The notes: generated by a model not told the origin, from the letters alone. Positions 1 through 10,923 are shown, numbered from the stretch's first letter. The stretch: 64,000 nt of DNA from Clostridia bacterium 41_269 (GCA_001508005.1 LGEZ01000006.1:14179-78178), one strand, 5' to 3'. Numbers and translations are program-made.

Positions 1-2960
1 TGTAAATTACAATTTAACTTTTGGGCAATGGCTTCAATTAATTCCATTTCAGCATTGCTGATTCTCTTTCCATCACAAAGGATAAGGGGATTTTGTGCTT
101 TAATGAATCGAAGTGCAAAGGACATTATCTTTTCTGGTTTAGTTAAAAATCTTTTTAAAATGTTTTGCATATCTTCTAAACTATCCCTATCCCTTTCTTT
201 TGTAAATTCAGATATCAGTTTGATCAGTTTCAGCAGTTCAAAAACTTTTTTCGGACTAATATGGAGGGTTAACGCTGCTGTATTATCAAATCTGGTAGGT
301 TTGCTGTTTATAATCCCTATTTCACTCTTCCCATCCCTAACAGCCCTTCTCAGGATATTACCTAAAACTGGATAATCCAAAGACGGATCTATATTCAATA
401 ACAGAATAAAATCATTTGCTCCTATATCTTTAAATCTGGATAAATTTGGAGACTGAATTAAAGCTTTTGTCCCTTCAGAATCAGGAGAAAGAATACCAAT
501 ATTATCTGTTTTCAGTACTGTCCTGCATAATTTTAAGGCCGCAAAAGCATCTTCATTGGTTATTTTTGGTGAAATAAGACAGGCAATTTCATTCTGAGGT
601 TCACTATCTTTAATAAAACGGGAAAGACCCCAGACTGCTCTTTTATATGCATTCTCCCAAGAAGTTTTCACCAATGATCCATTAACCTTTACCAAAGGAT
701 CTGAAAGGCGCTTCCCAAACCTATTATATACGGTGTATCCAAAGGCTCCTTTAAAACACAAATTCCCTCTATTAATTTCACTATCTATGGGTGCCGTTAC
801 TTTTACCACTCCATATTTTGTGGTATTCAGCTCAATATCGCAGGCTATACTGCAGTGGGGACATACCGAAGCCGTTTTTTGGACACTCCACGGCCCTGGT
901 TTGGGCATTGACACCTTTATTAAAAGAGCTCCTGTGGGACAAACAGATACACACTGACCGCAGAACTCACACTGGGTTTTTGAAAGAGGCAGTTCTAGGG
1001 ATGGTTTAATAACGGTTTTAAGCCCTCTATTGACATAACCCAAGGCACCTACTCCTTGAACTTCCTGACAGATTCTCACACAGCTGCCGCACAATATGCA
1101 TTTGCCTGGATCTCTTAAAATATATTCATTATCATTAAGCAGCGGGTTATATTCTGCAATATTCAATAATTGGTTATTCTCAACCTTATATAGAGATGCC
1201 AATTCCCTGAGCCTGCACTCAAAGCCTTCACTGCATCCGCAGGAAAGACAGCGCTCTGCTTCCTTCACTGCCTGTTTTTCAGTAAAACCTTCCACTATTT
1301 CATCAAAATTGGTAATCCTTCTTTCGACTGACAGAACAGCTTCTTTCTGCCTTGGCTTTTTGGGAATATCTTTAAACTCTTCAGGATCTATTTCTTCAAG
1401 CCTGCCTTTACTGCAGTTGTAAGGCTTGGGTTCCGGAATTACAGCTTCACCCCTCAAGTATTTATCCACTGCCAGAGCAGCTTTTTTCCCGCATCCTATG
1501 GCTTCAACAACAGTACTTGGGCCTGTTACACAGTCGCCAGCAGCAAAAACCCATTCCACAGAAGTTCTAAATGTTTCCGGTTCCACCTCAATAAGTCCCC
1601 AGCGGCTTATCTTTATTTCAGGACTGCCCTTTAAGCTTTCAGCTTCCATGATCTGTCCCACTGCCATAATAACTGTGTCAGCCTCTATTGAAAACTCTGA
1701 ACCTTCAATGGGAACAGGTCTTCTTCTGCCGCTTGCATCAGGCTCCCTCAGTTCCATACGTATGCACTCCACTGCTTCCAATTTTCGGTCGCAGATAATA
1801 TTCACTGGACTGGCAAGAAAAATAAATTTTACCCCTTCTTCTTTAGCTTCAGCTACTTCCCTCGGTTCCGCAGGCATTTCCTTTTCTGTTCTTCTGTATA
1901 CAACTATAACTTCTTTAGCCCCCATCCTTACGGCAGTCCTCGCTACATCCATTGCTGTATTTCCGCCGCCGATAACCACCACTTTTTCCCCTAAGGAAAT
2001 ATCCCTACCGTAGGCAACGGATTTCAGAAACTCTACACCTGAATAAACTCCTGGTTTATCAATTCCTTCCATAGAAAGCCTTTGTTCTGCTTGACATCCT
2101 ATGGATAAAAAAACAGCATCAAAGCCCTGTTCTTTTAAGCTTTGAGGATTAAAATCCCTTCCCATTTTCATTCCGCATTTTGCTTCTATACCAAGTTGTA
2201 AAATATGTTCTATTTCTTTATCCAGAACTTCCTTGGGAAGCCTGTATTGGGGGATGCCGTAACGCATCATACCCCCCAATTCCTGCTCCGCTTCAAAAAC
2301 AACAACTCTGTGCCCTTTCCTGCGCAGATAGTAGGCTGCAGTTAAGCCTGCAGGACCTCCTCCTACCACCGCAACCCTTTTCCCCGTATCTGGTAGAATG
2401 TTTAATATGTGGGAATTATTATTTTTTAGGGCTTCATCCCCAGCAAAACGCTTAAGAAGGCAGATGGAAACAGGCTCATCAACTAACTGCCTGCGGCATT
2501 CCTTTTCACAAAATTTCGGACATATCCTTCCCACAGATGAAGGAAAAGGAAGATCTTCTCTTATCAGCTCAGCTGCTTCAACATAAGCACCGTTTGCAAT
2601 ATGGGCTATGAAACCTTGAATATCTATTCCAGCAGGACATGCATTGCGGCAGGGCGCTGTGCAGTCACCGTAATGATTGGAAAGAATAAGCTCAAGAGCT
2701 GTTTTCCTAATTTCAAAAAGGGTACTGCTGTTTGTTCTTACAACCATACCCTCTGACACTTCTGTTGAACAGGCTGTTACAGGCTTGGGATAATTATCTA
2801 TTTCTACAAAACATAGGCGGCAAGCACCGTAGGGTTCAATTCTGGGATCATAACAAAGGCTGGGAATATCAATCCCTACTTTTCTTGCAGCTTCAATAAT
2901 TGTGATTCCTTTTTCCACTGTAACTTCTATTCCATCAATCGTTAAATTTACTGTCTCCAT
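1..2960 (-). CDS. Multidomain oxidoreductase subunit (2Fe-2S ferredoxin-like, GltD/NfnB-like FAD/NAD(P)H domain, 4Fe-4S clusters, NuoG/Fdh-like molybdopterin-oxidoreductase domain); C-terminus lies outside the window
   Basis: Absent from the ORF track because it runs off the edge. The minus frame is open from the ATG at 2960 to base 1, and ATGGAGACAGTAA overlaps the upstream stop. My translation gives [13 protein letters not shown]...[27 protein letters not shown] and [12 protein letters not shown] (two Rossmann motifs), [23 protein letters not shown], then CPHCSIAC...NRGNLCFKG. Confidence 0.75.
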
Positions 2961-4765
2961 GAGCTTCCCTCCCCCCCGTTAAGCCCTGCTGGCATTCCTT
3001 TCGAGACAGTTTCCACTGCATCAAACCTGCAGGTTTCTGAACATATACCACACTTAATGCATTTCTTAATATTTATCCTATACGGATGATTTTTTTCTCC
3101 TTCTACAGCATTAGCAGGACATTTTTTAGCACAAAGCCCACATCCAATACATTTTTCAGCACTAATTCTGTACTCGATAAGCTCTATGCACTTACCGGCA
3201 GGACATCTTTTTTCATAAACATGGGCTTCATATTCTTCCCGAAAATATTTCAATGTTGTTAGAACTGGATTGGGAGCTGTCTGCCCCAATCCGCAGAGAG
3301 AACCCTTTATTATTTTCTCTCCTAAATCTTGAAGTCTTTCTAAATCCCCGGGCTCTCCTTGTCCGCTGCATATTCTGTCCAATATTTTAAGCATCTGATA
3401 TGTTCCTATCCTGCAAAAAGTACACTTTCCACAGGATTCACTGGTTGTAAACTTTAAAAAAAAGCGGGCAACATCAACCATACATGTATCCTCATCCATT
3501 ACTATAAGTCCCCCGGAACCCATTATAGCTCCTGCGCTTTTTAAAGCTTCATAATCAACCGTTATATCTGCCATACTTGCAGGAATGCAGCCCCCGGAAG
3601 GACCTCCAGTTTGTACGGCTTTAAAAGCTTTTTGTGTGGAAATTCCACCACCTATATCAAATACTATTTCTCTAATGGTTGTACCCATGGGTACCTCAAT
3701 TAAGCCCCCTCGCTTTACCTTTCCTGCAAGGGCAAATATTTTAGTTCCCTTACTCTTTTCTGTACCGCAGGAACTGAAAACATCAGCACCCTCGGAAAGA
3801 ATTCTTGCAGCTGCAGCCAAAGTTTCCACATTATTGATGCAGGTAGGTTTCCCCCACAACCCTTTTTGAGCAGGAAACGGAGGTTTAAAACGGGGCATCC
3901 CCCTATGGCCCTCTATGCTGGCCATAAGGGCTGTCTCCTCACCACATACAAAAGCTCCTGCTCCTTCACGAATCTCTACGTCAAATGTGAAATTTCCATT
4001 AAATATACCCTTTCCCAGAAATCCTTTTTTGCGTGCCTGTTCAATGGCTATTCTGAGCCTTTTTATGGCAAGGGGATATTCAGCACGAATATAAACATAC
4101 CCCTTTTCTGCTCCAATGGCATATGCAGCTATGGCCATTCCCTCTAACACACTATGGGGATCGCTTTCCAGCACACTTCTATCCATAAAAGCTCCCGGAT
4201 CTCCTTCATCAGCGTTGCATATTATATATTTTGGTGTACCATGGGCTTCACGGGTAAGCTTCCATTTAATATGGGTTGGAAAGCCGGCACCACCACGACC
4301 CCTCAGTCCCGCTTTCTCGATTTCCAATATAACATCAGCAGGAGTCATAGCAACGGCTTTTTCTAAGCCTTTATACCCTCCTGCTTCAAGGTAGCTGTTT
4401 ATATTTTCAGGATCAATTTTTCCGCTGTTTTTCAGAAGTATCCGGTGCTGTTTTTTGAGGTATTTACTTTCTTCTGTTTCAAAAGTGCTGGAATAAACAA
4501 TCCATTCTTTTATGGGATTTCCCTGCAGTATATGTTCTTTTACTATCCTTTCTGCCTTTTTTACATCAACACTGCCATAGATAAAGGTACCGGTTTCGTC
4601 ATTAATCTCAACAAGGGGTTCTTTAAAGCACATTCCAATGCAGCCTGTTTTCATAAGCTTAGTCTTTTCTTTTGGCAGATTAGATTCTAAATAATCAAAA
4701 ACTTTACTTGCTCCTGCTGCAATACCGCAGCTTGCCAAACCAACTTTTATTGTTTTTAGGTACAT
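2948..4765 (-). CDS. NuoF/HydB-like NADH-binding flavoprotein subunit (FMN, 4Fe-4S; N-terminal thioredoxin-like 2Fe-2S region; C-terminal 2x[4Fe-4S] ferredoxin)
   Basis: 605-aa ORF with [21 protein letters not shown], and C-terminal [12 protein letters not shown] and [11 protein letters not shown]. The stop overlaps the start of the downstream fusion gene. Confidence 0.9.
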
Positions 4766-4804
4766 TTCTCACTCTCCCCTTACTCCATGCAGAAAATAAA
4801 TAGG

Positions 4805-5299
4805 CTAATCTCTTGGCATCTTTTTTATTTCCTTTATAAGCTCCTTTGCTTTTTCCTGAGTCATCCTACCATGGGTTTCTCCATTAACCGTTATGACAGG
4901 AGCCAAACTGCAGCAGCCCAAACAGGCAACCTTTTCCACGGTAATTTTCCCGTCTGGGCCGGTTTCACCTTCAGTAATACCAGCAGCTCGACAAAGGGCA
5001 CTTGCAATCTCGTCAGCTCCAGCAAGATGACAGGCAGTTCCATGGCATACCTGAATCAGCACTTCGCCAATGGGCTTTAAGCGGAATTGTGAATAAAAAG
5101 TTACAATTCCAAAAAGATCGCTTGAATTAATGCCGGTTAATTGAGAAATCCTATAAAGGGCGAATTTTGGTATATATCCCAATTCCTTTTGAATGTCCTG
5201 CAGAATTGGAATGGCAGCACCGCGTTTATCAGCATGCCTTTTTACAATAGAATCAATTTTATCTTCTATTTTTACAGAGGCAGCCCTTTTTTCTTCCAT
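4805..5299 (-). CDS. NuoE/HydC-like thioredoxin-fold 2Fe-2S subunit
   Basis: 164 aa with the CHGTACHLAG ... CLGCCSLAPV cluster motifs typical of 24-kDa-type subunits. It lies directly upstream of the NuoF-like gene. Confidence 0.9.
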   Translation of the reverse strand: MEEKRAASVKIEDKIDSIVKRHADKRGAAIPILQDIQKELGYIPKFALYRISQLTGINSSDLFGIVTFYSQFRLKPIGEVLIQVCHGTACHLAGADEIASALCRAAGITEGETGPDGKITVEKVACLGCCSLAPVITVNGETHGRMTQEKAKELIKEIKKMPRD

Positions 5300-5301
5300 G
5301 G

Positions 5302-5595
5302 TTAAGCACCACCCAAAAGAGATTCAATATCATAAAGGGATAAACATCTTTTATCCTGTAAAGCTACAAATTTTAATACCTCTACCTTTGTAATCCAGGA
5401 AAGATTTTCTATACTGCGTGCCAATTCATCAATGCTGCCGCTGGTTTCTATCATCACTACAAGGTCATACTTACCCACAACGGGGTCCACAAAGTCCACC
5501 TCAAATTTCTTTTCCAGTTCAGACACTGCTTCAATAAAAGCGTCTTTATCCAGGGTATCTGAAACTTTAATTAAAAGATAAGCCCTTGAAGCCAT
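5302..5595 (-). CDS. Small stand-alone Lrp/AsnC ligand-binding (RAM)-like domain protein
   Basis: 97 aa (ASRAYLLIKV...YDLVVMIETSG...) with a beta-alpha-beta-beta-alpha-beta-like pattern. Its stop is 2 nt from the nuoE-like ATG, so it is probably the first gene of that operon. Confidence 0.45.
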   Translation of the reverse strand: MASRAYLLIKVSDTLDKDAFIEAVSELEKKFEVDFVDPVVGKYDLVVMIETSGSIDELARSIENLSWITKVEVLKFVALQDKRCLSLYDIESLLGGA

Positions 5596-5633: not shown

Positions 5634-6614
5634 TTAGCTTTTATAATTTGATCCTGCAAGAATCCTTACAGCCAACAATGCTATCCCCACTGCATTATCA
5701 GTGCTGTAGCAGGGCTCACAAAAATGCAGCTTTGCACCAACAGCTTTGTGCTCAAGCCTTTTCTTTAAAAAACTCCTTATAAATTGATTTGCCATAACAC
5801 CACCTATAAAAAGAACATCTTTAATTTCATAATTCTCTACTGCACGTCTCACTATCTTTTCTATGGTTTTTGCTATACAGATCTCAACAGCTCTGGCTAT
5901 GGAAGGAAAATGCTCTCCTTTATTAATCAAACGCTGAGCAAAGGACTCAGGTCCAGAAAAACTGAAGCTGTAGCCCTTTACAGAAGAAGGAATCCTCAAC
6001 TTCGAATCTTTACTGCAGAGCATTGCTAATTTTTCCAGTTCCGGTCCCGACGGAAAGCTCATACCCATGTTTACTCCAACTCTATCAATAAATTGGCCGG
6101 CATAAAGGTCTTCAGATTGACCCAAAATTTCGATTTGAAAACCTCCTGTTTTACAGCATTTTACCTTTAGGAGTTCTGAAGTACCTCCGGAAAAATGAAC
6201 TGCCAAAAAATCACTTTTGGGTACAAAACCTGAAGAATAAATACCTGCCATTAGATGTCCTTCCTGATGGCTTAAAGGTAAAAAAGGCACCTGCATTACA
6301 GATGCCAAAGATGTGCCCATTCCTTTAGAAACCAAAAAAACAGGCATATGGGAATCCTCTAAAGGACGAGGTTTTACGCTTGCTGCAATACCCACTACTT
6401 TTCTCCAATCAATAAATTCTTTTAATTTTAATATTAATTTGGGAAGATTCTCCACATGCTGTAGCACGCAGTCACTCTGTTTTAGCCCCTTTGAACCTTT
6501 AGGAACTTGTAAGGAAATTCTCTCATCAAAAACTATCTTTCCCTGTTCATTAGAAACAGCAGTGGATGTCGTATAACAGCTTGTATCAAACCCTACAAAA
6601 TAACCTCTCCTCAT
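5634..6614 (-). CDS. Kae1/TsaD (peptidase M22, ASKHA fold) family protein
   Basis: 326 aa with an N-terminal GFDTSCYTTS phosphate-1-like motif and an HQEGHL metal motif. The start overlaps the nusB stop. Confidence 0.6.
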   Translation of the reverse strand: MRRGYFVGFDTSCYTTSTAVSNEQGKIVFDERISLQVPKGSKGLKQSDCVLQHVENLPKLILKLKEFIDWRKVVGIAASVKPRPLEDSHMPVFLVSKGMGTSLASVMQVPFLPLSHQEGHLMAGIYSSGFVPKSDFLAVHFSGGTSELLKVKCCKTGGFQIEILGQSEDLYAGQFIDRVGVNMGMSFPSGPELEKLAMLCSKDSKLRIPSSVKGYSFSFSGPESFAQRLINKGEHFPSIARAVEICIAKTIEKIVRRAVENYEIKDVLFIGGVMANQFIRSFLKKRLEHKAVGAKLHFCEPCYSTDNAVGIALLAVRILAGSNYKS

Positions 6615-7671: not shown

Positions 7672-9021
7672 TTAATTTCCTGTCAAGCGTCTTTGAATAA
7701 AGTTAGTATAAACTTCGCCCCGTTTGAAATAAACATTATCCAAAACTTTTAAATGGAATGGAATTGTAGTTTTTATTCCCTGAATTATATACTCCTTTAA
7801 AGCGCTTTTCATTCTTTGTATAGCTTCTTCTCTGGTAGGAGCCCAAACAATTAATTTTCCAATTAAAGAATCATAATAGGGCGGTATTTCATAACCTGCA
7901 AAAACAGCGCTATCAACTCTAACACCATTTCCTCCAGGAGCATGATACTTTTGTATCTTTCCAGGAGAAGGCTTAAAATCGTTTTCCGGATCTTCAGCAT
8001 TTATTCTGCATTCAATGGACCAACCTCTTATACTGACATCTTCCTGGGTAAAAGACAATTTTTCTCCACTGGCTATCCTAATCTGTTCTTTAACCAAATC
8101 AATACCGGTAACCATTTCCGTCACAGGGTGTTCAACTTGGATTCTTGTATTCATTTCCATGAAATAGAAATTTCCATTTTTATCCAAAAGAAATTCTACT
8201 GTTCCAGCACTGTAATAATCCACAGCCTTCGCAGCTTTAACAGCCGCCTCCCCCATACGGGTACGGAGCTCTTCATTAACTGCCGGTGAAGGTGCCTCCT
8301 CCAAGAGCTTTTGATTCCTTCTCTGAAGGGAACAATCCCTTTCACCTAAATGCACAACATTTCCATAGGTATCTCCAATAATTTGGACTTCAACATGTCT
8401 GGGTTCTTCAATATATTTTTCTATATAAAGCTGAGGGTTGCCAAATGCAGATTCTGCTTCCCTTTGAGCCGTTTGGAAATTCTTTATAAGCTCACTTTCG
8501 CTATAAGCTACCCTCATTCCCCGGCCTCCGCCACCGGCTGTAGCTTTTATCATAACAGGATAGCCCAGTTTATCAGCGATCAAAGCAGCCTCTTTAGAAT
8601 TGGAAACTATCCCCTCTGAACCTGGAACTACGGGAACCCCTGCCTGCTTTACAGTTTCCCTAGCTTTTGCTTTTTCTCCCATGAGTTCAATGGTCTTAGG
8701 TGAAGGACCAATAAAAACTATATCATTATCTGCACAGGCTTTTGCAAATTCTGAGTTTTCTGCAAGAAAACCATATCCTGGATGAATAGCTTCAGCTCCG
8801 CTGGCCTTTGCAGCCATTATAATGTTAGGTATATTTAAATAGCTTTTTATGGACTGACTTGGGCCGATGCAGATGGCTTCGTCAGCCAGCTGAACATGGA
8901 GTGCATCTTTATCAGCTGTAGAATAAACCGCCACAGTAGCTATATCTAACTCACGGCAGGCACGAATAATCCTTAATGCAATTTCTCCTCTATTGGCAAT
9001 CAATACCTTTTTAAACATCAA
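7672..9021 (-). CDS. accC: Biotin carboxylase (AccC / PycA type)
   Basis: 449 aa: [39 protein letters not shown]. Confidence 0.9.
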
Positions 9022-9024
9022 CCA

Positions 9025-10923
9025 CTACCCCTTTTTAATTTTAAATAATGGCTGTCCATATTCAACGGGCTGACCGTTTTCAACCAGAATAGCAACAACT
9101 TCACCATCGACTTCAGTTTCGATTTCGTTAAACAGCTTCATTGCTTCAATTATGCATAGGGTCTGACCTTTTTTCACTTTACTTCCTACTTCCACAAAGG
9201 GATCTGCATCGGGAGCAGGAGCTCTGTAAAAAGTTCCTACCATTGGGGCTTCAACTACAACAATATCCTCGCCTTCTTCTATTCCTTCTTTTTCAACTTT
9301 CTTTTCTTCATCACTTTCAGATACAGCTTGCTCTTTTTGTTCAATACTTAATACCTCTCCTTTTTCTTCGGCAAGAATCATTTTACCTCTTCTCACAACA
9401 AGACGCATTCCATCGCCCTCATAATTAAATTCCGTTGTACCCGTTTCATTAAGAACTTTCAGAAGCTCCTTGATGTCACTAATTCTCACATCGCCCACCT
9501 CCTGTTCTAAATCAGCAGCTTCATCTTCCGCAACATGCTCCCTGGTAGCAGCTACGGTTTGTTCAACTGCAAAGATCTTTTTCTTTTTCCTTCCCTCTTC
9601 GAAAAACTTTCTTGCCACCTGAGGGAATAGAGCATAAGAGATAACATCTTCTTCGCATGTTGCCAAGTCTTTAATCTCTTCCCTTGCTTTTTCCATTCCT
9701 GGCTCTAGAAGATCCGCTGGTCTTCCCTCGTATATCTCTTCATCCCCAATTATTTTTCTTCTAATTTCTTCATTAATTTTTCCAGGTGGTCTCCCATAGG
9801 CACCTCTTAAATAAGCTTTAACTTCTCCTGGAACAAGTTTATATCTCTCTCCAGTAAGAACATTTAAAACCGCCTGTGTACCTACAATCTGGCTTGTGGG
9901 AGTAACTAAAGGTGGATAACCTAAATCCTCCCTAACTCTTGGTATTTCTTTCAGTACTTCTTCCAACTTATCCGTAGCGTTTTGTTCTTTAAGCTGGTTC
10001 ACAAGGTTTGAAATCATTCCACCTGGAACTTGATGTTCAAACACCCACATATCTGTAATTCTGGTAACTCCACGCTGAAAACCATGTTTTTTCCTTATTT
10101 CTTCAAAATAGTTTGCCACTTCAAACAACTCGTGCAAATCCAAACCCGTTTCAAATTCACTTTCTTCAAGAGCTCTTACAACAGTTTCCACAGGTGGCTG
10201 CGATGAACCAAAAGCTAAAGGAACTGAAGCAGTATCAATACCATCAGCACCTGCTTCTATACCTTTTAGATAAGCACCAAAAGCAAGTCCCCCCACATAG
10301 TGGCTATGTAGATGTATGGGCACACTTAGTTTTTCTTTGAAGGGCTTAACCAGTTCCGCAGCTTTGTAAGGGGTTAAAAGTCCAGCCATATCTTTTATGC
10401 ATATGGAGTCAACCCCCATCTCCTGCAGCTGCATCGCTACATTTAGATAATGTTCCGTACTGTGAACAGGACTTACAGTATAAACTACTGCTCCCTGGAC
10501 ATGGGCTCCCTCTCTTTTTGCTACTTCAATGGATTTTTCCATGTTTCGCAGATCATTTAATGCATCAAAAATCCTAATAATATCTATTCCATTTTCGACA
10601 GCTTTGGCTACAAAACTCTCTACAACATCATCAGGATAATGCTGGTAACCTACCAGTGCCTGCCCTCTGAGAAGCATTTGAAGAGGCGTCTTTTTAGCAT
10701 ACTTTTTCAACAAACGCAGTCTTTCCCAGGGATCTTCATTAAGATAACGCATACAAACATCAAAAGTTGCTCCGCCCCAAGTTTCTAAAGAATAATAGCC
10801 CAGGGAATCCAATCTTTCAATTATTGGAAGCATATCGGACGTGGACATTCTTGTGGCCCAAAGGCTCTGATGGGCATCCCTTAATGTGGTATCAGTTATT
10901 TTTATTTTTTTAATTTTTTTCAT
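9025..10923 (-). CDS. Carboxyltransferase + biotin-carboxyl-carrier fusion (pyruvate carboxylase subunit B / oxaloacetate decarboxylase alpha-like)
   Basis: 632 aa with an N-terminal HMGL-like TIM domain ([12 protein letters not shown] ... HLHSHYVGG), an acidic linker, and a C-terminal biotinyl domain ([13 protein letters not shown]). Confidence 0.8.

Follow-up and report, generated by a model that had tools for sequence, protein, structure and literature searches.

Flavin-based electron-bifurcating transhydrogenases of the Stn/NfnABC type are not new to biochemistry: they have been purified from three organisms, solved by cryo-electron microscopy (cryo-EM), and are widespread in Firmicutes. 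The family, also termed Nfn-Bfu, corresponds to type 1 Bfu, clade 53, and occurs "mainly in the Firmicutes" (PMC9304861). The solved complexes are those of C. saccharolyticus NfnABC (PMC11829005), S. ovata StnABC (PMC10482914, PMC7483475) and an archaeal Nfn-Bfu (PMC12018979). The locus described here lies at the beginning of a 64,000-nt stretch of DNA from Clostridia bacterium 41_269 (GCA_001508005.1 LGEZ01000006.1:14179-78178, corresponding to G000:C4:14179-78178), hereafter called the window. Three of its genes, stnA, stnB and stnC, very probably encode a further transhydrogenase of this family, and their operon is headed by a fourth gene, which codes for a stand-alone RAM (Lrp/AsnC ligand-binding) module.

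The operon consists of four co-directional open reading frames (ORFs) on the minus strand of the window, of 97, 164, 605 and 986 amino acids, the last of which runs off the window. Intervals of 2 nt and 39 nt separate the first three ORFs, and the third and fourth share 13 nt; this is exactly the tight packing that a first-pass annotation of this DNA, made by a model from the sequence alone, had listed. The first gene of the operon (5302-5595, minus strand) encodes the 97-residue RAM module, devoid of a helix-turn-helix, and ends 2 nt before stnA. StnA/NfnC (BfuC; 4805-5299, minus strand) is a NuoE-like [2Fe-2S] subunit of 164 residues with a thioredoxin fold, and StnB/NfnB (BfuB; 2948-4765, minus strand) a NuoF-like FMN/NAD(H) subunit of 605 residues. 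StnC/NfnA (BfuA; 3-2960, minus strand) is represented in the window by residues 1-986 of 1129. The contig reaches 14 kb beyond the window, and the remaining 143 residues are encoded outside it, upstream of position 1 (G000:C4:13749-14180), the full gene being L002:13749-17138 on the minus strand.

Searches of the PDB place the three large proteins among the solved complexes. StnC matches 9bov_A (E 3e-246), 8oh5_C (2e-215) and 9n5u_A (6e-206); StnB matches 9bov_B (5e-249), 9n5u_B (1e-240) and 8oh5_B (2e-236) over nearly its full length; the matches of StnA, at about 1e-43, include 9bov_C, 8oh5_A and 9n5u_C. C. saccharolyticus NfnABC (PDB 9bov/9bp5; PMC11829005) is the best match for both StnB and StnC and a close second, after a HydC chain, for StnA. 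Pfam and NCBIfam analysis agrees with the NuoE-like subunit, the HydB-type NuoF-like subunit and the large fusion protein proposed at first pass. StnA covers positions 1-145 of the 145 of PF01257 (E 6e-49). StnB harbors PF01512 and PF10589, with a 2x[4Fe-4S] domain at its C-terminus and a thioredoxin-like piece at its N-terminus, while the part of StnC in the window is composed of Fer2_4, Fer4_20 and Pyr_redox_2 (GltD type), Fer4_Nqo3, Molybdop_Fe4S4 and, at its end, the first part of Molybdopterin. The succession of a NuoE-like gene, a NuoF-like gene and a large NuoG/GltD fusion is that of StnABC, and this A-B-C order is retained in all 31 of the other stn loci examined. Neither of the two other bifurcating architectures is found. 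The H-cluster domain of HydABC (PF02906) is neither in StnC nor was it detected anywhere in the genome, and in place of the NfnSL (NfnAB) arrangement, a ~470-residue NfnL with a ~280-residue FAD/[2Fe-2S] NfnS and no NuoEF, the GltD module is fused here into the 1129-residue NuoG-like protein adjoining NuoEF.

The iron-sulphur ligands and nucleotide sites are complete. The [2Fe-2S] ligands of StnA are C85, C90, C126 and C130 (C-x4-C-x35-C-x3-C). Alignment of StnB to 9bov_B, 9n5u_B and 8oh5_B reveals conserved FMN/NADH motifs; the B1 [4Fe-4S] cluster is ligated by C445, C448, C451 and C491, the eight cysteines of the C-terminal 2x[4Fe-4S] ferredoxin domain (B3/B4, residues 539-579) are conserved, and so is the 3Cys(+Glu) site formed by C13, C42 and C46 in the N-terminal thioredoxin-like domain. 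StnC begins with a [2Fe-2S] domain (PF13510, residues 2-78; window 2727-2957, minus strand) holding C36/C47/C50/C64. It is followed by two segments delineated by Pfam and alignments: a GltD/NfnL-like insert with two [4Fe-4S] sites, one of them the 3Cys+Lys site (residues ~100-505; 1446-2663, minus strand), and a NuoG-like Fe-S region (residues 571-735; 756-1250, minus strand). The ligand sets of the latter are C571/574/576/582, C621/624/627/631, C664/667/670/674 and, in Molybdop_Fe4S4, C700/703/707/735. The GltD-like FAD+NAD(P)H domain had been called complete at first pass, and both of its nucleotide sites are indeed intact: GGGPAG (200-205) for FAD, and GGGNTAMD (331-338) followed by YRR (355-357) for NADPH. 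GGGPAG and an 11-residue stretch are invariant among orthologues.

The FAD-proximal [4Fe-4S] cluster of the solved enzymes is ligated by Cys108, Cys147, Cys151 and Lys170 (PMC11829005, PMC10482914), the lysine being strictly conserved and required for activity (PMC10482914). Up to and including residue 178, no gap interrupts the alignment of StnC with either bacterial structure, so the Cys108, Cys147, Cys151 and Lys170 of StnC are the published ligands under identical numbers; R240 is the counterpart of S. ovata R239. In an alignment of StnC with four orthologues (five sequences), the invariant residues comprise C36, C47, C50, C64, H96, C100, C104, C108, C147, C151, C155, K170, C571, C574, C576 and C582, the eight cysteines of the ferredoxin-like pair, GxGxxG, GGGNTAMD and YRR. 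This set contains all ligands in the first 680 residues, i.e. those of the [2Fe-2S] and of five of the six [4Fe-4S] sites. The sixth (C700/703/707/735) is kept relative to C. saccharolyticus, and StnC thereby has complete ligand sets for one [2Fe-2S] and six [4Fe-4S] clusters.

The locus shares with C. saccharolyticus NfnABC the three-subunit architecture, the identically numbered Cys108/Cys147/Cys151/Lys170, the 3Cys+Glu site at the N-terminus of the B subunit, and a pterin-less formate-dehydrogenase-like (Fdh-like) tail without Cys-His. With S. ovata StnABC (PDB 8oh5/8oh9; PMC7483475, PMC10482914) it has in common the domain order 2Fe-2S / GltD insert / NuoG-like / inactive FdhF-like, Lys170, the R239 equivalent and the stnA-stnB-stnC order. 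The BC core and the GltD-type A subunit are also those of Thermococcus sibiricus Nfn-Bfu (PMC9304861) and of the solved archaeal NfnABC (PDB 9n5u; PMC12018979), but the archaeal A subunit is 963 residues long and has one cluster fewer, whereas the protein described here is the long bacterial form. With solved complexes among the best structural matches and the diagnostic residues retained, the proposal of a StnABC-type electron-bifurcating NAD(P)H enzyme, already made at first pass, is upheld.

The C-terminal part of StnC calls for a separate discussion, as it resembles formate dehydrogenases (FDHs). The Molybdopterin profile (PF00384) is matched end to end by residues 751-1107, of which the window contains residues 751-986 (3-710, minus strand; Pfam and alignment), PF04879 is likewise matched over its whole profile, and the tail aligns to solved FDH alpha subunits with E-values of 1e-17 to 1e-26. 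These similarities would be accounted for if the enzyme were a formate dehydrogenase, NAD(P)+-linked or bifurcating (Fdh-Bfu type), whose catalysis took place at a Mo/W-pterin in this domain. This reading is nevertheless extremely improbable and was rejected, since the protein lacks the active-site residues and PF01568, the cofactor genes MoaC, MoeA_N and FdhD were not found in the 95.5%-complete genome, and the solved orthologues are free of pterin. The cluster motif CPHCSIAC...NRGNLC is present at window 756-872. Residues 690-1129 were aligned by HMMER to B. subtilis YjgC, a Sec-containing F420-dependent FDH, R. capsulatus FdsA and E. coli FdhF: the stretch opposite the ...C-S-R-x-C-Q / C-A-R-L-Sec-H... 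segment, where 14 residues are encoded at window 471-512, contains no Cys, Sec or His, as is also the case in the C. saccharolyticus and S. ovata proteins. The C-terminal pterin-capping Molydop_binding domain (PF01568) was not found in the full-length 1129-residue protein. This alignment and the lack of PF01568 bear out the suggestion of the first-pass annotation that the Mo/W domain may be vestigial. The annotation had also pointed to fdhD or moa neighbours as a check; the neighbours are folD and xseA, and MoaC, MoeA_N and FdhD were not found in the 95.5%-complete genome, while control genomes gave matches. StnC is moreover the sole PF00384 protein of the genome.

In the homologues, no pterin density was observed (PMC11829005), and the FdhF-like domain is described as an inactive evolutionary remnant, a dead-end cluster branch that matters for tetramer assembly (PMC10482914, PMC11829005). 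The tail of StnC is, as judged from its sequence, a cofactor-less relic, because MoaC, MoeA and FdhD and any other molybdopterin-fold protein were not found in the 95.5%-complete genome; the predicted absence of pterin from the complex itself is deduced from the missing MoaC, MoeA_N and FdhD. The substrate question that had been left between NADH/ferredoxin:NADP+ transhydrogenation and formate thus appears settled in favour of transhydrogenation, because the Sec/Cys-His pair, the Molydop_binding domain and fdhD/moa are lacking and both nucleotide sites are intact. Shorter forms of StnC also exist in bacteria: proteins of ~685-750 residues without the whole Fdh-like domain are present in about 9 of 54 Stn-bearing genomes sampled, for example at L041:7456-9507 (G027) and L072 (G169), the G169 protein being 64% identical to the present StnC over residues 1-693. 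Work on the S. ovata enzyme found the Fdh-like domain and its clusters to be needed for assembly, which makes these natural truncations noteworthy.

The genomic setting could suggest another role for the three subunits. The gene folD starts 45 nt downstream of stnC on the same strand, the S. ovata stn genes also stand beside C1-pathway genes (PMC7483475), and non-bifurcating NuoEF homologues exist (PMC9304861). The complex might accordingly be a non-bifurcating NADPH oxidoreductase (NADPH:ferredoxin or NADPH:NAD+) or an electron-input module for a further partner such as the adjacent folate C1 enzymes. This is quite unlikely. StnB exhibits the marks of a bifurcating Bfu, the C-terminal 2x[4Fe-4S] and the N-terminal thioredoxin-like domain, and falls within the Stn set by similarity. 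The folD neighbourhood, for its part, is a housekeeping array into which the operon has been inserted. The array nusB-folD-xseAB-ispA-dxs is an ancient one. Downstream of stnC are folD, xseA, xseB, ispA, an unassigned ORF, dxs and a gene for a TlyA-like methyltransferase; upstream of the operon are a divergent TsaD-like gene, nusB, asp23, two pyruvate-carboxylase-type genes and spoIIIA genes. The TsaD-like gene, the RAM gene and stnABC are an insertion between nusB and folD of this classical Bacillus-type array. The arrangement is identical in the genome of a sister genus (L003, a "Clostridia bacterium" metagenome-assembled genome, Bacillota), insertion into the array is seen in this genus only, and a FolD match is absent from all other extended stn loci. 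The acetogen S. ovata differs in that its stn genes follow the Wood-Ljungdahl cluster (metVF), whereas the operon here lies between nusB and folD.

A few points weigh against the assignment to the Stn/NfnABC family and the role deduced from it. The residue equivalent to Cys114, a possible alternative FAD-proximal ligand in S. ovata and also a cysteine in C. saccharolyticus, is an isoleucine in StnC; this is not disqualifying, given that an active archaeal enzyme has a valine there. The Fdh-like tail is ~45-50 residues shorter than in the solved bacterial enzymes (1129 residues for StnC, compared to 1172 and to the 1178 of C. saccharolyticus). The activity, cofactor content and oligomeric state of the complex are predictions from homologues, and its physiological direction is deduced from the gene content of an incomplete genome.

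The mechanism of the Stn/NfnABC-type enzyme can be proposed by taking over, as a whole, that of the solved homologues. The reaction would be 2 NADPH + NAD+ + oxidised ferredoxin <-> 2 NADP+ + NADH + reduced ferredoxin. NADP(H) would react in the 1129-residue subunit, at the FAD of its GltD-like insert, from which single electrons would pass via the 3Cys+Lys [4Fe-4S] cluster and the Fe-S cluster chain to the N-terminal [2Fe-2S]. The putative bifurcating site is formed by the [4Fe-4S] and FMN of the NuoF-like subunit together with the [2Fe-2S] of the NuoE-like subunit; it would pass a hydride on to NAD+, while ferredoxin would receive low-potential electrons by way of the two [4Fe-4S] clusters at the C-terminus. 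The Fdh-like tail would be a structural relic carrying a dead-end cluster branch and, as in the homologues, may mediate the contacts within a tetramer of heterotrimers.

The genome (1.67 Mb, 40.7% GC, 95.5% complete, Bacillota) offers few other routes between these carriers. It contains four 2-oxoacid:ferredoxin oxidoreductase alpha-type genes (POR_N), two [NiFe]-large-subunit-like genes and FTHFS, the sole Wood-Ljungdahl gene checked. Neither an [FeFe] hydrogenase (Fe_hyd_lg_C) nor Rnf (Rnf-Nqr) was found in it, whereas C. saccharolyticus possesses a bifurcating [FeFe] hydrogenase, and StnB is its sole PF01512 gene product. There is no NfnL-sized GltD protein in the genome, because the only other GltD-type gene, on contig 20 (G000:C20:4010-5791, i.e. 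L042:4010-5791, minus strand), encodes 593 residues. Stn and NfnAB have been described as almost mutually exclusive (PMC9304861, PMC7483475). StnABC is hence the only system recognised in the genome that connects ferredoxin with NADH and NADPH. Its physiological direction is likely the use of reduced ferredoxin and NADH to form 2 NADPH for biosynthesis, because the gene content includes several 2-oxoacid:ferredoxin oxidoreductases and no Rnf, [FeFe] hydrogenase, NfnSL or other NuoF-type enzyme. NADPH formation for biosynthesis has been proposed for C. saccharolyticus as well (PMC11829005). The 593-residue protein itself is a 2x[4Fe-4S] and FAD/NADPH module fused to an "MTHFR C-terminal" (DUF5981, MetV-like) domain; counterparts of ~600 residues occur in the other three genomes of the family, and it may be an NADPH-linked partner of methylene-tetrahydrofolate reductase. 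The organism belongs to a spore-former lineage, and near-identical DNA is found in terrestrial and hot-spring metagenome runs.

The feature that sets this operon apart is its first gene. Solved stand-alone RAM modules comprise P. horikoshii DM1 (2e1a) and PHS023 (2cvi), S. tokodaii STS042 (2zbc) and T. thermophilus TTHA0845 (2djw). To our knowledge, no solved RAM module has been reported beside a bifurcating enzyme. The 97-residue protein has no direct Pfam match. Its ESM Atlas neighbours are "Lrp/AsnC ligand-binding" clusters of ~100 residues (feature score 0.96, TM 0.7-0.84), and an exhaustive HMMER search yields 57 cluster representatives at E <= 1e-3, mostly of 85-103 residues, with a few tandem doubles. 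PF01037 is matched by 15 of 39 aligned family members, and the family profile finds 2cvi, 2zbc, 2e1a and 2djw. The AlphaFold2 model (pLDDT, the predicted local distance difference test, of 89) displays a beta-alpha-beta-beta-alpha-beta fold with a C-terminal helix (residues 87-94), and in Foldseek it matches Lrp/AsnC RAM domains best. These concordant results of neighbours, family matches, profile search and predicted structure confirm, at the level of sequence and model, a stand-alone RAM module, in keeping with the small RAM-domain protein of the first-pass annotation. It resembles the four solved modules in fold, size and the lack of a DNA-binding domain, none being found in the 97-residue protein, but identity to them is only ~21-27% and the predicted C-terminal helix is an addition. 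The module is probably, at a guess, a small-molecule-sensing partner controlling the operon or the enzyme.

The distribution of the gene was surveyed in 301 genomes of the phylum (221 genera), with a cut-off of E <= 1e-150 for StnC orthologues. StnC is present in 54 of the 301 genomes (41 of the 221 genera) and a RAM homologue in 10, all 10 of which also carry StnC. In each of the nine other genomes, from 7 genera, the RAM gene is directly upstream of, and co-directional with, stnA-stnB, and a full-length stnC follows in the 7 of 7 RAM-stn loci that could be extended. The family hidden Markov model (HMM) detects no RAM ORF in 20 RAM-less stn loci, nor does a profile search find one in the whole genomes of the five carriers whose RAM-less StnC is closest. 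A maximum-likelihood tree of 32 StnB proteins groups all nine RAM-linked operons together, beyond a branch with 100/100 support. Their side counts 16 rows, seven of them RAM-less, and the label needs at least 4-5 changes: the distribution within the subclade is patchy. As the rows are kin, these counts are descriptive, with no statistical test attached. Twelve further named loci show the RAM-stnA-stnB order, among them Desulforamulus putei DSM 12395, D. aquiferis, Pelotomaculum terephthalicicum JT, Dethiobacter, a Moorellales metagenome-assembled genome and, outside Bacillota, an Elusimicrobia genome. The Stn/Nfn-Bfu papers PMC7483475 and PMC11829005, the latter describing the C. saccharolyticus enzyme, make no mention of a RAM gene, and among the papers listed by a full-text literature search none paired a RAM-domain term with electron bifurcation or transhydrogenase. 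Two candidate variants were discarded. In an apparent RAM-NuoE fusion (515-residue ORF, G022, L040), the codon-position GC of the 360-residue N-terminal extension follows a non-coding or antisense pattern, and a weak tblastn match of the RAM protein (E 0.02), lying within the NuoE gene of G005, was taken to be chance, the RAM HMM finding nothing there.

Two explanations of this association have to be weighed. The RAM gene may be functionally independent, encoding a small regulator or a partner of a full-length Lrp/AsnC protein and sharing only a promoter region with stn, an account that comes close to being probable and falls somewhat short of it. One canonical full-length Lrp/AsnC regulator is indeed encoded elsewhere in the genome (G000:C21:39087-39569), the natively purified C. 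saccharolyticus enzyme consists of three subunits, and 44 of the 54 Stn-bearing genomes sampled lack a RAM homologue, which also tells against any general part of the module in Stn enzymes. Chloroflexota RAM homologues, furthermore, adjoin other genes: GltD/NfnL-like, pyridine-nucleotide-disulfide oxidoreductase, NuoG-like and citrate synthase. Mere independence, however, sits less easily with the presence of StnC in all RAM-bearing genomes against its base rate of 54 in 301, with the immediately upstream, co-directional position in every other such genome, with the further named loci of the same order reaching beyond Bacillota, and with the 2-nt distance to stnA here. The other explanation, more tentative and on balance doubtful, makes the RAM protein a fourth component, dedicated and ancestral, of one Stn/NfnABC subfamily. 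It would sense a metabolite, for instance an amino acid that reports the biosynthetic demand for NADPH, and tune the enzyme either as a bound regulatory subunit or via hetero-oligomers with the Lrp/AsnC regulator. Promoter and terminator scans around the operon returned site counts at or below the shuffled expectation and are thus uninformative about the transcription unit. In three Chloroflexota/Dehalococcoidia loci (L105:2501-4317, L104:2501-4298 and L102:2501-4594), the genes directly downstream of the RAM homologue encode a GltD/NfnL-like protein standing alone, a pyridine-nucleotide-disulfide oxidoreductase and a protein of the NuoG/FdhA-like kind; RAM proteins may thus be associated more generally with Fe-S flavoproteins linked to NAD(P)H.

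Two neighbouring groups of genes deserve a mention. The TsaD/Kae1-like protein (326 residues; window 5634-6614, minus strand), encoded between nusB and the RAM gene, scores 136 bits against a TsaD cut-off of 208 and is 79% conserved in the sister genome. A second TsaD copy on contig 15, 28% identical to it, is presumably the true TsaD, and the 326-residue protein looks like a divergent paralogue inserted along with the stn operon. Further upstream, at 7672-10923 (minus strand), a biotin carboxylase (449 residues) and a carboxyltransferase/biotinyl-domain protein (632 residues) fill the accC/accB slot of the spoIIIA-acc-asp23-nusB array; they are a split pair of the pyruvate-carboxylase or oxaloacetate-decarboxylase type.

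For the family, this genome represents a natural control for regarding the Fdh-like tail as a relic: the whole domain is kept, yet neither a molybdopterin-synthesis gene nor any other molybdoenzyme was found. We know of nothing described on the regulation of bifurcating transhydrogenases. The RAM gene, first in the operon in one StnB subclade to which cultured Desulforamulus and Pelotomaculum species belong, offers a concrete and experimentally testable handle on it. If the dedicated role tentatively proposed above were true, it would give Bfu-type bifurcating enzymes their first known case of allosteric or dedicated control.

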